This document shows positions 21,464 to 23,475 of a stretch of DNA of 64,000 nucleotides, one piece after another. Origin of the DNA: an uncultured Chlamydiae bacterium (GTDB taxonomy: Bacteria; Chlamydiota; Chlamydiia; Chlamydiales; Rhabdochlamydiaceae). The stretch lies in contig CAIJXB010000061.1 in the NCBI GenBank assembly GCA_903824495.1, forward strand, positions 13,569 to 77,568. The letters run 5' to 3'. The stretch's first letter is position 1. Every line of letters starts with the position of its first letter. The notes beneath the pieces are model-generated. The model did not search any database. It had not been told where the DNA came from and saw nothing but the letters and a program-made list of their open reading frames with translations. The translations under genes and the position numbers were made by a program.

Positions 21464-21537
21464 GGGGCAGTAGCTCAGGTGGTTAGAGCAGCGGACTCAT
21501 AATCCGTTGGTCGTAGGTTCAAGTCCTACTTGCCCCA
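21464..21537 (+). tRNA. tRNA with anticodon CAU (elongator Met or Ile2; not the initiator)
   Basis: GGGGCAG TA GCTC AGGTGGTT AGAGC A GCGGA CT-CAT-AA TCCGT TGGTC GTAGG TTCAAGT CCTAC TTGCCCC A. G1 pairs with C72, which argues against an initiator. A possible promoter is TTGCTT (21419), an 18-nt spacer, then TATCAT (21443). Confidence 0.9.
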
Positions 21538-21619
21538 CTTTCTTTAAAATCCATGTACAACTTTCTTTAAATGGTTTGTTAGTGTTATACGTAAGATCCT
21601 TTTTTAGAATGGGTTATTT

Positions 21620-21982
21620 ATGGATCGAAAAGTCATTGCAGTTATCACCGCAATTACAGGTGATCGAGTAGTCATTGGAGATGCGGAGTTAAAACATGCA
21701 ATGGAGGAGCATTTTTCTATGCTTCCAACAGATATGCTGCTAGAACTCATTGAAAGGATCTTAAAAGATCCTACGAAGATCTTCGAACAAGAGAAGCTCC
21801 ATCAATATCATCTTTTTTATCGCCTTGACAATCAAAAATACCTAGTGGTAATTATAAAGAAAACACAAACAGGAAACTATTTCTCATCCATGTACAGCAC
21901 TGGAAAAACTATTCGAAATAGCCACAAAGAATTAAAGGAGATCAGCCATGAAGAAAGGAAAAGTATTTTTCCATCCAATTGA
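21620..21982 (+). CDS. Hypothetical small protein (possible BECR-fold / DUF4258-PBECR-like toxin; low confidence)
   Basis: A 120-aa ORF, first gene of a translationally coupled trio. The pattern KHAMEEH...ILKDPTKIF...HLFYRL...YLVVIIKK...SSMYSTG recalls small RelE/barnase-like nuclease families. This was not verified. Confidence 0.35.
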   Translation: MDRKVIAVITAITGDRVVIGDAELKHAMEEHFSMLPTDMLLELIERILKDPTKIFEQEKLHQYHLFYRLDNQKYLVVIIKKTQTGNYFSSMYSTGKTIRNSHKELKEISHEERKSIFPSN

Positions 21983-22220
21983 CGGTTCAGGCTCTTTGAC
22001 TATTTCCTGGAGCTCTACCCCCAAGGGAGATGCTATTGACGCAAAAAAAGGATCTGGTGTTGGCTTCTTTTCTGAATCTAAAGATTTACTTGCGGTCATT
22101 TTTGATGAAGTAAAAGAATCTGAAGACCAGCAAACCTTAGAATTTGATCAAGTCCTCATTGAAGTGACTGTAAAAAATGGGGAGGCTACGTACGCACTAA
22201 CCTCCAAAAAAACCTTATGA
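21948..22220 (+). CDS. Hypothetical small protein (possible DUF2283-like antitoxin partner; low confidence)
   Basis: A 90-aa ORF with a strong AAGGAG SD 7 nt before the ATG. It overlaps the upstream ORF by 35 nt, and its TGA overlaps the ATG of the GNAT gene (ATGA). Confidence 0.35.
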   Translation: MKKGKVFFHPIDGSGSLTISWSSTPKGDAIDAKKGSGVGFFSESKDLLAVIFDEVKESEDQQTLEFDQVLIEVTVKNGEATYALTSKKTL

Positions 22221-22663
22221 ATTCTGTAGAAATTAGGATGGCAACCTCCACTGAACAGATTCAATCGTGTTACATAGCTATACGCCAACTTCGCCCTCAT
22301 ATAACAGAAAAATTAGCATTCGTCGAACAAGTACAGCGTCAATTAAAAGAAGGATATCATCTAGCATATATTGAAGCAGATGGTGAAGTGAAAGCTCTTG
22401 TTGGATTTAGATTTTTGGAATTCTTAGCATGGGGAAAGGTATGCTACATTGATGATTTAATCACCGACTCGGAAACGAGGAGAAATGGCCATGGTGGAAA
22501 ACTCTTAAAATGGGTAATTGAGCAGGCAAAAAAAGAAAACTGCGACCAAGTTCATCTGGATAGTGGCCCACAACGTCTTGATGCACACAGGCTATACTTG
22601 AATCACGGATTTAAAATTATTGGGCATCACTTCGCTCTAAATTTTAAAGAGACACCCTTTTGA
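22217..22663 (+). CDS. GNAT-family N-acetyltransferase
   Basis: A 148-aa ORF with acetyl-CoA motif A (RRNGHGGKLLKWVIEQAKK) and the DSGPQRLDAHRLYLNHGFKI tail. Confidence 0.85.
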   Translation: MNSVEIRMATSTEQIQSCYIAIRQLRPHITEKLAFVEQVQRQLKEGYHLAYIEADGEVKALVGFRFLEFLAWGKVCYIDDLITDSETRRNGHGGKLLKWVIEQAKKENCDQVHLDSGPQRLDAHRLYLNHGFKIIGHHFALNFKETPF

Positions 22664-22851
22664 CCATGCCCGCCATCTTGACCGTCTACATTCCCAGATC
22701 CATCAGCACCATGCTCTCCATCTTTAGCGCGCATAGATTCGCAAGTGTTCGACTCTTGCGAATTGCACTCTTTTGTATCACAAGCTGTCATCGAAACCGA
22801 GGCCACAAGAAGTAATCCAAATAACATTGTTGAAACGATCCTGCTTTTCAT
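22627..22851 (-). CDS. Small Gly/Asp/His-rich lipoprotein-like peptide (74 aa), third of three tandem peptide genes
   Basis: MKSRIVSTMLFGLLLVASVSMTA|CDTKECNSQESNTCESMRAKDGEHGADGSGNVDGQDGGHGQKGVSLKFRAK. AAGGA lies before the ATG at 22851. It shares the DGQDG motif with the upstream peptide. The track's longer ORF (to 22947) is the same frame run back through the upstream peptide gene. Confidence 0.6.
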   Translation of the reverse strand: MKSRIVSTMLFGLLLVASVSMTACDTKECNSQESNTCESMRAKDGEHGADGSGNVDGQDGGHGQKGVSLKFRAK

Positions 22852-22861
22852 TTTTAATCCT

Positions 22862-23020
22862 TTATTTTTTTTTGCCATCTTGTCCATCACTTCCTTTCCC
22901 CAAAGGGCCTGTACCACCGCTGCCACCATTACCGCCATTTCCAGCATAGGCTTTAATCGATGTGGTTGATGTCACTAAGAGTGAAAGAACAAAGAGGACT
23001 TTGAATAGAGGAAGTCTCAC
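22862..23020 (-). CDS. Small secreted Gly-rich peptide (52 aa), not in the ORF track
   Basis: The GTG at 23020 overlaps the TGA stop of the upstream peptide (GTGA), and GGAG lies 7 nt upstream. It translates as (M)RLPLFKVLFVLSLLVTSTTSIKAYA|GNGGNGGSGGTGPLGKGSDGQDGKKK*, ending in a TAA at 22862-22864. Confidence 0.5.
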   Translation of the reverse strand: MRLPLFKVLFVLSLLVTSTTSIKAYAGNGGNGGSGGTGPLGKGSDGQDGKKK

Positions 23021-23184
23021 TTACTATCTCCGCCATGACCGCCATGACCACCAGGTCCTCCATGCCCAGCAGCACCACCAGAGTGACTACCTTGACCACC
23101 AGGGCCTCCGTTTGCAGCATGTAGAGTTGGATCTATTACGAACATAGAAACTGCGATTGCTACTGAAATTTTTTTGAAAATCAT
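23017..23184 (-). CDS. Small secreted Gly/His-rich peptide (55 aa)
   Basis: MIFKKISVAIAVSMFVIDPTLHA|ANGGPGGQGSHSGGAAGHGGPGGHGGHGGDSK. AAGGAG lies 7 nt before the ATG at 23184. The track's longer ORF starts at 23304. Confidence 0.6.
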   Translation of the reverse strand: MIFKKISVAIAVSMFVIDPTLHAANGGPGGQGSHSGGAAGHGGPGGHGGHGGDSK

Positions 23185-23421
23185 ACTGAACTCCTTAAAT
23201 GTTTCTTTTGGGAGATCTTTATGCAATCCTATTTTATAGACTGTCAAGGACAATGGATAAAATGCTCCCACTCTCCAGCTGCATTTGCAACACAATCGCA
23301 ACACAGTTCGGCCCTATTTTGGTTAGCAAAGCTCAGCCATCACCAGTTGAAAGAAAGGAATCAGATGAGGCACTCTACTAGTGTAAGCAGCAAATGAGTG
23401 CTGACGGCGATGGAAAAGGAA

Positions 23422-23475
23422 GCTGACTCATAAGCCGCTCTTTGTAGGTTCAAGTCCTACTTGCCCCACTTTCTT
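23422..23475 (+). repeat. Pseudo-tRNA 3' fragment / att-like direct repeat of the tRNA-CAU 3' end
   Basis: Positions 23444-23475 are identical to 21513-21544 (gtaggttcaagtcctacttgccccactttctt, 32 bp). Similarity extends upstream with a few mismatches into the anticodon arm (gctgactcataagccgc vs gcggactcataatccgt). There is no 5' half, so this is not a functional tRNA. Confidence 0.85.

Follow-up and report, generated by a model that had tools for sequence, protein, structure and literature searches.

Chlamydiae are obligate intracellular bacteria that have long been seen as poor in mobile DNA. In the window analysed here, i.e., the whole 64-kb stretch of DNA from an uncultured member of the Rhabdochlamydiaceae, a tRNA-CAU gene is followed at a short distance by a second, partial copy of itself, and the locus raises the question of whether the approximately 1.9 kb between the two (the islet) entered the chromosome by site-specific integration and, if so, whether it is a remnant or a small cassette that can still move. 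The mechanism is a textbook one, and the worth of the case lies in its chlamydial context. The tRNA gene and the repeat are delimited as follows.

21464..21538, plus strand: intact tRNA gene with anticodon CAU (ARAGORN, Rfam, fold)
21490..21544, plus strand: direct-repeat copy 1, covering the tRNA from its anticodon arm onwards and the next 7 nt (CTTTCTT)
23421..23475, plus strand: direct-repeat copy 2, the candidate attR side; partial tRNA beginning in the anticodon stem and complete at the 3' end, with 7 nt of flank

The gene at 21464-21538 is labelled Met by ARAGORN (anticodon CAT), scores 71 bits with the Rfam tRNA model and folds at -32 kcal/mol (z -3.9 versus shuffles). It is not initiator-like because G1 and C72 are paired, and may be either an elongator Met or a lysidine-type Ile2 tRNA. 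The repeat finder returned the pair 21490-21544 / 23421-23475, 55 nt long with 89% identity, in which the 3' 48 nt of the tRNA and the 7-nt flank are repeated and the last 32 nt are exact. As originally noted, this exact core, GTAGGTTCAAGTCCTACTTGCCCCACTTTCTT, is real, occurring exactly twice in the 64-kb window (21513-21544 and 23444-23475), with no match in any of 100 dinucleotide-preserving shuffles. A profile of 99 distinct tRNA 3' halves likewise picks out these two positions alone within the window, at E 1.6e-18 and 9.5e-14, the next best hit having an E of 0.15.

Only the first copy is a tRNA. For copy 2, no tRNA is called by ARAGORN and no Rfam tRNA match is obtained at E<=1, while the 75 nt ending at this copy are not more stably folded than shuffled sequences (-15.9 kcal/mol, z +0.72), the T-arm hairpin alone surviving. 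The 5' half is absent, as had been claimed, no likeness to the 5' part of the tRNA being detectable upstream of position ~27. The description of copy 2 as a decayed tRNA copy holds in that it is partial and no longer a tRNA, but decay is not required to account for its mismatches with copy 1. All six lie within its first 23 nt, which is not the pattern that would be left if a crossover in the anticodon loop had displaced a host fragment and this had simply decayed; the crossover may have been in the anticodon loop or in the T arm. These mismatches in the anticodon-arm part may instead have been brought by the inserted element.

For comparison, about 110 related loci were used (L numbers below), which come from uncultured members of the Rhabdochlamydiaceae and from allied chlamydiae. 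The order of a gene for a 715-aa protein, a DUF1207 gene and the tRNA is conserved in 82-90 loci, and conservation ends exactly at the tRNA. The genes to its right in the window are absent from the 10-kb flanks of the relatives, with the exception of a GNAT gene in L058 and of paralogous autotransporter-type matches, and island-free species do not have any right-flank gene in common. Insertion at the tRNA would explain why the gene order shared by the window with its relatives stops at 21.5 kb. Among the 50 informative species, i.e., those with at least 3 kb of sequence past the tRNA, 18 harbor a full-length tyrosine integrase that is on the tRNA strand and starts no more than 700 nt from the tRNA 3' end; these enzymes belong to the Phage_integrase family (Pfam 1.1e-33), and integrase fragments adjoin the tRNA or its partial copies in other species. 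Partial tRNA copies with the same start position in the tRNA occur in 12-13 additional species, and L011 and L047 each have three copies in a row. A related integrase is present at tRNA-CAU in about one third of the species and stacked tRNA fragments in about one quarter, which bears out the suggestion that this tRNA is a recurrent insertion hotspot. In dozens of species of uncultured Rhabdochlamydiaceae, one conserved tRNA-CAU gene delimits a variable region, and it can be searched for as a landmark when their accessory and defence genes are to be located.

The partial copies in the relatives start at the anticodon stem/loop and end 5-8 nt beyond the 3' end, as seen in 13 loci from GTDB and in about 10 contigs from metagenomes. 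The blocks that they bracket are mostly small and devoid of integrase, and carry toxin-antitoxin, nuclease or drug-modifying genes. In L005 and L011, the tRNA and copy 2 enclose an integrase-less block, and an integrase, either intact or a pseudogene, comes after copy 2. A seemingly different downstream region in L007 was discarded, this locus being an assembly chimera in which the 5' part of the tRNA is joined to the 3' part of another tRNA.

Partial copies of this kind could also be read without any integrase. It can be hypothesized that copy 2 is a decayed second tRNA-CAU gene of a tandem pair that has lost its 5' third, and the calling of some partial copies (L019, L047) by ARAGORN as 68-69-nt 'tRNA-Met' would agree with this; however, nothing tRNA-like precedes position ~27, the 7-nt flank is duplicated too, the truncation point is identical in many species and no relative has two intact copies at the locus, so that we hold this origin to be extremely improbable. 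Alternatively, copy 2 could have arisen by local segmental duplication followed by an unrelated insertion, or by illegitimate recombination. Such an origin is suggested by L003 and L004, where the repeat extends more than 60 nt beyond the tRNA and the next genes are doubled too, giving a segmental or tandem look, and by the lack of a compositional difference in the islet. Against it, more than 20 independent copies share the same tRNA start and end 5-8 nt after the tRNA, integrases or their fragments adjoin many copies, including those of L003 and L004, and arm motifs are shared around the copies. In addition, the T-stem of the L005 copy has compensatory changes identical to those of the native tRNA of other species, which points to a functional tRNA or an att site as its source, and speaks against local copying. 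Duplication is consequently judged very unlikely, if somewhat less so than a tandem tRNA.

The two arms of the islet and the DNA beyond the outer repeat were delimited by alignment and flank comparison.

21545..21619, plus strand: islet left spacer
23305..23420, plus strand: islet right arm
23476..23498, plus strand: ~23 nt, AACTAACGCAATCTCTATTACGA, following copy 2

The right arm has a CAGTTGA, located about 80 nt before the anticodon-loop sequence on its 5' side, as well as a motif like TGTGAACAG, and both are common to the right ends of the elements in L082, L005, L110 and L112. In the left spacer, the first ~35 nt have a weak likeness to the left ends of other elements at tRNA-CAU, and the last ~37 nt (about 21583-21619) correspond to the upstream region that travels with a toxin-like gene module in other genomes. 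The ~23 nt after copy 2 resemble the start of the tRNA-to-integrase spacer in L011 copy 2, L005, L037 and L051, and are probably the left-end relic of an older island that has lost its integrase.

That the repeats are the attL and attR junctions of a site-specific integration into the 3' part of tRNA-CAU, the islet being a remnant, is in our view likely, since the repeat has an exact core and is not due to chance, its second copy does not form a tRNA and gene order is lost at the tRNA; since integrases and same-start partial copies occur at tRNA-CAU in the relatives; since the right-arm motifs are shared with other elements and the flank after copy 2 is like an integrase-proximal spacer; and since the tRNA has a lineage-specific 7-66 G·U and the islet a GNAT gene shared with the L058 island. 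The attL/attR footprint originally proposed is in this way supported by the comparison with the related loci. Regarding the 7-66 pair, the G7·U66 mismatch in the acceptor stem of tRNA-CAU is found, among 83 homologous tRNA copies, in the window and in its 97% relative only, the pair being A-U or G-C in the other 80 copies. This unusual pair fits a swapped-in tRNA 3' end: the tRNA gene appears to form the attL side, with its 3' part replaced.

By the proposed route, a tyrosine integrase of the family adjoining the same tRNA in many related chlamydiae would have acted on an incoming element carrying its own copy of the tRNA 3' ~48 nt and a few flanking bases; recombination would have rebuilt a working tRNA at one end and moved the displaced 3' fragment to the other. 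At least two events would have taken place in this lineage, namely the insertion of an older island, followed by that of the present 1.9-kb islet between the tRNA and copy 2. Of the older island, about 23 nt of the integrase-proximal arm would now be left after copy 2, possibly together with a hipBA module, and the integrase of the islet would have been lost by deletion. The family of the enzyme that made the junction in the window, the order of the events and the deletion are inferred.

Some observations count against the attL/attR reading, namely the lack of an empty site or circular junction, the lack of an integrase in 64 kb, the host-like composition of the islet, the weak likeness of its left end and the confinement of the six mismatches to the 5' 23 nt of copy 2. 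With tblastn and six integrases from the relatives, no integrase or remnant was found in the islet or in the rest of the 64 kb; candidates at E<=50 were dismissed as noise, the best lying in a ShlB-type outer-membrane protein and in an ORF without Pfam match. The absence of significant hits agrees with the integrase-less gene content originally described, and a remnant and a small cassette were hence the right pair of alternatives to consider. Regarding the empty site, attB would read as the full tRNA directly joined to AACTAACGCAATC… and attP as …GGAAAAGGAAGCTGACTCATAAGCCGCTCTTTG-core-TAAAATCCATGTAC…. The exact 32-mer has no match in JGI metagenome contigs, while a 25-mer retrieves 22 of them, of which the sole conspecific one was already known and ends at the tRNA, and no attP/attB junction is seen among them; in the 97% relative, the contigs end inside or at the tRNA. 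Aligning the locus with its relatives, as had been advised, thus established that the duplicated segment and its content are not shared, but yielded no empty-site allele. The advised comparison of composition likewise gave no contrast, the GC content of the islet being 0.406 versus 0.415 and its tetranucleotide distance lying at the 62nd percentile.

Among known systems, the closest architecture is that of the tRNA-integrated genomic islands collected by Islander (Hudson, Lau & Williams 2015, PMC4383910), with the sublocation classes of Williams 2002. As in these islands, the islet has an intact tDNA at one boundary, while at the other a 3' fragment of the tDNA has been displaced and is directly oriented, on the same strand; this fragment begins in the anticodon arm and ends shortly beyond the tDNA, as in the common 'anticodon-centred' class; in relatives, tyrosine integrases lie beside the same tDNA, tandem arrays occur at it and the downstream content differs. 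Unlike them, the islet has no integrase inside, so that it would be rejected by the Islander filter, and it measures only 1.9 kb. Moreover, the exact block covers the T arm and acceptor only, and no crossover class (A or J) is therefore assigned. The islet can also be compared with CIMEs, which are derivatives of ICEs or islands with attL and attR but without recombination and transfer genes (ICEberg 2.0, PMC6323972). Both att sites are kept with an exact 32-bp core, the islet has no integration, excision or transfer genes of its own, and the relatives' blocks stand in tandem with integrase-bearing elements at one site, as in accretion. The differences are that no partner element is present in the window, that the parent elements look like small primase-helicase islands (L058) and not like conjugative ICEs, and that the host is an obligate intracellular chlamydia. 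Most likely, the islet is a decayed remnant that is not self-mobile, the equivalent of a CIME with its att sites kept and its recombination genes lost; as such, it is an ordinary decayed case of a known class of tRNA-integrated elements.

A cassette of CIME-like or satellite type might nevertheless hitchhike, i.e., still be mobile by means of an integrase acting in trans or in cis, provided by a related island that is located elsewhere in the genome or arrives at the same tRNA. The perfect conservation of the 32-bp core at both ends of the islet and the sharing of its right-arm motifs with other elements speak for such a cassette, integrase-less att-flanked blocks of 1-3 kb are found at tRNA-CAU in at least eight species, the L005 block directly adjoins the intact integrase behind copy 2, and mobilisation of CIMEs by accretion is known in other bacteria (PMC6323972). 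However, no cognate integrase lies within 64 kb and no circular or empty junction was detected in the JGI contigs; the cargo of the blocks differs from species to species, none recurring as a unit; the first gene of the islet has a damaged 3' end; and the left arm is poorly conserved. On balance, present-day mobility of the islet is unlikely. The broader proposal that tRNA-CAU is a standing accretion platform in Rhabdochlamydiaceae, where short integrase-less att-bounded blocks with toxin-antitoxin, nuclease or drug-modifying genes, the islet included as a still-mobilisable cassette, are captured, stacked and exchanged in trans, is held with the same reserve and put forward as speculation; the agents of exchange may be a family of tRNA-specific tyrosine integrases circulating among Rhabdochlamydiaceae. 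If true, the platform would in its function have more in common with an integron or an array of CIMEs than with a mere accumulation of dead islands. The defined att core and the integrase family make a candidate genetic tool.

A precedent for an accumulation of decayed elements is provided by the tycheposons of Prochlorococcus, in which successive integrations leave broken integrase genes and incomplete tRNAs behind (Hackl et al., bioRxiv 10.1101/2020.12.28.424599). In common with the chlamydial loci, tyrosine-recombinase elements are found there at a few tRNA genes, including Met-CAU, older elements are pushed outward, and fragmented integrases, scattered partial tRNAs and stretches of leftover cargo remain. 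The two differ in phylum and ecology, and the islet is without evidence of activity or PICI-like packaging genes.

Just outside the outer repeat of the islet, the window has the following two genes.

24728-25039, minus strand: hipB of a hipBA toxin-antitoxin module
23512-24747, minus strand: hipA of the same module

The module combines a HipA kinase with an overlapping HTH antitoxin gene (HipA_C 1.2e-51, Couple_hipA 2.6e-23, HTH_3 2.9e-14 in Pfam; 20-nt overlap), and the stop codon of hipA does lie 37 nt past the outer repeat, as had been pointed out. This accessory DNA may be what remains of an older insertion. Mismatch and profile searches of the window found no third tRNA copy, so hipBA is without an outer boundary repeat; a fragment at 25499-25520, with a 73% match inside an ORF, was treated as chance. 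The closest HipA homologues (86-89%) lie in unrelated contexts without a tRNA fragment, the 86% homologue, from another MAG, being located between mraZ and the dnaA region.

With regards to the cargo, the islet has two convergent three-gene units, as first described, with three plus-strand ORFs and three small minus-strand ORFs, none of which is a recombinase (Pfam) or a transfer gene; PADLOC reports no known defence system in it.

21620..21982, plus strand: PBECR2 nuclease-fold protein, putative BrnT/RelE-like toxin (Pfam PF18810)
21948..22220, plus strand: all-beta protein of 90 aa, partner of the toxin-like gene product and its putative antitoxin or immunity factor (gene contexts, AF2)
22217..22663, plus strand: small GNAT N-acetyltransferase (Pfam PF00583, 5.4e-14)
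22627..22851, minus strand: small ORF, 74 aa from an internal ATG at 22851 (ORF list, sequence reading)
22862..23020, minus strand: small ORF, 52 aa, beginning at a GTG that overlaps the stop codon upstream of it (ORF list)
23017..23184, minus strand: small ORF, 55 aa from an ATG at 23184, with AAGGAG 7 nt upstream (ORF list)

The first product matches PF18810 marginally (28.3 bits, cut-off 27.1) and has 191 homologues at 74-93% identity; these are 110 aa long, the islet version having a changed C-terminus and 10 additional amino acids. It has no sequence match in PDB, and the top Foldseek match of its AF2 model (pLDDT 82.5) is BrnT 3u97, at marginal scores (E 0.016, TM 0.41/0.61). In other chlamydial genomes, the 90-aa partner gene is constantly located 3' of the PBECR2 gene, and L113-L120 have both genes as a conserved pair, overlapping by 4 nt. 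Homologues of the partner have 66-80% identity in the alignment and form 57 clusters among 1.84 billion representatives. Its AF2 model is confident and all-beta (pLDDT 93.1), with no fold match in PDB at E<0.1 (Foldseek) and no Pfam or NCBIfam family; none of the RHH, HTH, Phd/YefM or BrnA-like antitoxin folds was recognized. Like BrnT/BrnA and other type II modules of the RelE superfamily, the pair consists of two small overlapping genes with the toxin first, has a PBECR2 domain (Barnase-EndoU-ColicinE5/D-RelE-like) with BrnT RNase toxin as best, if marginal, structural match, and occurs at unrelated chromosomal sites in different genomes. In contrast to these modules, the putative partner is confidently all-beta, unlike known antitoxin folds.

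The GNAT is 72% identical in amino acids and 75% in nucleotides (tblastn, blastn) to a cargo gene of L058, a locus with an island at the same tRNA that harbors an integrase and a RepB-primase/DUF3987 gene; the cargo gene is 9.3 kb away from the tRNA, where the sequenced part of the island ends. A role as a TacT/AtaT-type toxin was considered for it and set aside, its matches being to generic GNATs only (NCBIfam below cut-offs; PDB). Judged by these similarities, the islet is a mosaic, in which a mobile pair of BrnT/RelE-like toxin and partner is combined with a GNAT that also occurs in a full island of another species and with three small peptides that are predicted to be secreted. In the 22627..22851 ORF, a lipoprotein-type signal (…SMTAC) is associated with a Gly/Asp-rich tail, while the 22862..23020 ORF has a signal peptide with a Gly-rich tail, neither of the two having a family match in Pfam or NCBIfam; a signal peptide and a Gly/His-rich tail are found in the 23017..23184 ORF. 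The Gly-rich coding repeats of these small ORFs make up the repeat family D1 of the window.

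At 21464-21538 on the plus strand, ARAGORN finds a single tRNA with anticodon CAT, which obtains 71 bits with the Rfam tRNA model. In the repeat finder, 21490-21544 matches 23421-23475 (55 nt, 89% identity), and both repeats close with the same 32 nt (21513-21544 and 23444-23475), a word occurring twice in the window and matched in 0 of 100 shuffles; the tRNA-CAU gene and the exact 32-bp repeat of the original prediction are thus real. The outer copy (copy 2), proposed to be a decayed fragment, is indeed no tRNA: ARAGORN calls none there, the Rfam tRNA model gives no match at E<=1, and the fold of the 75 nt ending at this copy is no more stable than that of shuffles (z +0.72), with a T-arm hairpin as all that survives. 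A profile of the 3' halves in this tRNA family (99 distinct sequences) recognizes exactly two sites in the 64 kb, namely copies 1 and 2.

Between the two copies, the ~1.9-kb islet displays the two three-gene units previously described:

21620-21982, plus strand: PBECR2 protein, 120 aa (Pfam match just above the cut-off)
21948-22220, plus strand: partner protein, 90 aa, no family
22217-22663, plus strand: GNAT acetyltransferase, 148 aa
22627-22851, minus strand: small ORF, ~74 aa, signal peptide or lipobox, then a Gly/His/Asp-rich tail
22862-23020, minus strand: small ORF, ~52 aa, signal peptide or lipobox, then a Gly/His/Asp-rich tail
23017-23184, minus strand: small ORF, ~55 aa, signal peptide or lipobox, then a Gly/His/Asp-rich tail

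The three plus-strand genes overlap. The three tandem minus-strand ORFs (region 22627-23304) appear to be translationally coupled, judging from a GTG overlapping the upstream stop codon and an AAGGAG before the ATG at 23184; they match no known family and have no homologue among the 123 fetched loci. PBECR2 has a Barnase/EndoU/ColicinE5-D/RelE-like nuclease fold, and the predicted structure of the first protein (pLDDT 82.5) has the BrnT RNase toxin as its best PDB match (E 0.016) in a structure search. The partner is modelled with confidence as an all-beta protein (pLDDT 93), which matches no PDB fold in the structure search. In chlamydial metagenomes, 191 homologues of the first gene can be found (74-93% identity), all of 110 aa, and in every case examined a second-gene homologue of 87-114 aa comes next, overlapping by 4 nt; the window version has an altered C-terminus and is 10 residues longer. 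The pair occurs at unrelated chromosomal positions across different Chlamydiota genomes (loci L113-L120), and the genes at 21620-22220 are regarded as a putative mobile toxin-partner module.

Gene order around the tRNA was compared in 10 contigs obtained by exact-protein look-ups, 80 species-representative loci with 10-kb flanks and 22 metagenome contigs. On the left, the order 715-aa protein, DUF1207 protein, tRNA-CAU is conserved, as are the tuf, tRNA-Thr and tRNA-Trp genes further left. Close homologues of the DUF1207 protein (20093-21328) number in the hundreds in MAGs that bear the labels Rhabdochlamydiaceae, Chlamydiae or Parachlamydiales, and reach 97% identity. The 715-aa protein (17949-20096), without Pfam match at E<=0.001, lies beside DUF1207 in 81-82 fetched loci, with best matches at 67-95% identity. 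On the right, nothing in the 10-kb flanks of the relatives corresponds to the 40 kb beyond the tRNA: window genes from 21.6 to 64 kb are absent there, except for paralogous autotransporter-type matches and the GNAT, which shares 72% aa identity with a homologue in the related locus L058. No right-flank gene common to island-free species was found. Since the left order is conserved and the right order is lost, tRNA-CAU marks the boundary of a hypervariable region. Several metagenome contigs stop within the tRNA or precisely where it ends (L001, L002, L006, L008-L010), and L007, considered as an alternative allele, was rejected as an artefact joining the 5' two-thirds of the tRNA to the 3' end of a different tRNA, followed by non-chlamydial genes. 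These assembly artefacts can be ascribed to the conserved anticodon arm, and are a trap when "alleles" at this site are scored.

Near the tRNA of L005 lies a 354-aa protein of the Phage_integrase family (Pfam 1.1e-33). By tblastn with this protein and five relatives, a full-length homologue starting <700 nt from the tRNA 3' end, on the strand of the tRNA, was found in 18 of 50 informative species (those with 3 kb or more of sequence past the tRNA). In the window, as originally predicted for the islet, the same search gave no match, the best noise being a ShlB-type protein and an ORF without Pfam match. Integrase fragments or pseudogenes adjoin the tRNA, or partial copies of it, in L011, L020, L037, L045 and L046, among others, and in L003/L004 a 45-aa integrase piece is found twice, after the tRNA and after the partial copy. 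L058 (1-9774) harbors a fuller island at the same tRNA, with an integrase, a RepB-primase/DUF3987 protein, an AadA-like nucleotidyltransferase, a CPT-GNAT fusion (chloramphenicol-phosphotransferase-like) and three more GNATs, the last GNAT being the homologue of the window GNAT. In L058, genes of drug-modifying type are thus clustered in an environmental chlamydia.

Extra copies of the tRNA 3' part can be found in 13 species loci and ~10 metagenome contigs, nearly all with homology from the anticodon stem/loop (tRNA positions ~27-36) to 5-8 nt beyond the 3' end. Three copies stand in tandem in L011, and three in L047; the partial copies in relatives support the proposed recurrent hotspot. In the 18 species whose integrase is intact and adjacent, no tRNA copy lies within 10 kb, so their islands must exceed 10 kb; species with copies within 10 kb are mostly devoid of integrase. 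The cargo of these small copy-bounded blocks varies by locus:

Cargo of integrase-less blocks in related loci
L005, L019: AbiE-type toxin-antitoxin
L011: HTH + M78 peptidase
L047: YhcG nuclease
L074: CPT-GNAT fusion
L061: LD-carboxypeptidase + cupin

L005 and L011 share one arrangement, with the tRNA followed by an integrase-less block, then copy 2, then the integrase (intact or pseudogene), the pattern expected when a newer insertion displaces an older island outward. ARAGORN labels the partial copies at L019 6349-6417 and L047 3659-3726 as 68-69-nt "tRNA-Met", and a conserved motif, GCTG[C/T]GGGAAGTGGCG.GGGTGC, precedes the copy in L019, L047 and L037 (near 3780); these copies with their motif may be the D-arm-less tRNA-like end of one element family.

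The two repeats are likely to be att junctions left when a tyrosine integrase inserted an element into the tRNA-CAU 3' part, with the 1.9-kb islet as an integrase-less mosaic remnant; the attL/attR reading was judged correct from the integrases and same-start partial copies at this tRNA in relatives. Duplication of the tRNA 3' part without an integrase is very improbable, and a decayed second tRNA gene as the origin of copy 2 is harder still to credit, because the truncation point is common across relatives, integrases adjoin the site, and the T-stem of the L005 copy, with its compensatory changes, is that of the native tRNA of other species. Regarding the exchange itself, 6 of 6 repeat mismatches fall within the first 23 nt. 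With a crossover in the anticodon loop and simple decay, the clustering of the five mismatches 3' of the loop would be unlikely (~8e-4, our estimate), which would leave either strand exchange in the T-arm/acceptor block or homogenisation of the two cores. A G directly follows the anticodon loop in copy 2 of the window and in that of L082 and L045, but all tRNAs have T or C there, which suggests that this part of copy 2 is element-derived. Among 83 homologous tRNA copies, acceptor pair 7-66 (window 21470 and 21530) is A-T in 64 and G-C in 16; G·T is confined to the window and its 97% relative (three records, one contig being present twice), as would be expected if a G7 5' half joined an imported T66 3' end.

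It is also conceivable, though rather unlikely, that the islet can still be mobilised in trans or in cis, like a CIME. The core repeat is exact and the right arm is conserved: upstream of copy 2, CAGTTGA stands ~80 nt from the anticodon-loop sequence, just as in the L082, L005, L110 and L112 copies (chance probability of a 7-mer at a fixed distance ±1 nt, ~2e-4 by our own estimate), which also share a TGTGAACAG-like motif. These shared motifs are, first of all, a sign that the right end derives from such an element. Less in keeping with the att reading, the left end has weak similarity to other element ends, and the last ~37 nt of its spacer are the toxin module's own upstream region. Neither an empty site, sought among relatives as originally advised, nor a circular junction was found in metagenome contigs searched by core sequence or in the contexts of HipA-side homologues. 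The anticipated compositional contrast with the flanks did not appear either; the islet is indistinguishable from its host, which is compatible with an insertion long ago or with exchange between similar genomes, but lends the att reading no positive support.

As a probable remnant of integration, the islet is a further example of an already known kind of feature. According to the Islander principle, a regenerated tDNA with a displaced fragment denotes an island, and tandem arrays are recognized (PMC4383910); the window locus likewise has an intact tRNA and a displaced fragment but lacks the integrase that Islander demands. The unit fits the definition of a CIME, in which att sites are kept and integration and transfer genes are lost (PMC6323972). 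At the level of the locus, the fragmented integrases and partial tRNAs at chlamydial tRNA-CAU parallel those left by successive integrations in tycheposon islands (bioRxiv 10.1101/2020.12.28.424599). Full-text searches found no paper on a tRNA-CAU hotspot in Rhabdochlamydiaceae, which is not proof of absence. The significance lies mainly in how widely the hotspot extends across uncultured chlamydiae, and not in the islet.

To the right of copy 2, the next 23 nt (AACTAACGCAATCTCTATTACGA) are similar to the beginning of the spacer between tRNA and integrase in L011 copy 2, L005, L037 and L051, which suggests that an older integrase-bearing island, since truncated, once started there. The hipA stop codon lies 37 nt beyond copy 2, where the HipBA module had been placed, and is followed by hipB. 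Searches of the window with tRNA fragments found no outer boundary repeat for hipBA, and its closest homologue elsewhere is not tRNA-linked. Just upstream of hipB, a perfect 22-nt inverted repeat (TTTTATATATTAAAACATATCG / CGATATGTTTTAATATATAAAA, 15-nt spacer) at 25056-25114 is probably the hipBA operator or promoter. Just right of hipBA, two autotransporter genes (26380-28848 and 30530-32794; Pfam Autotransporter beta-domain) lie on either side of an amidohydrolase.
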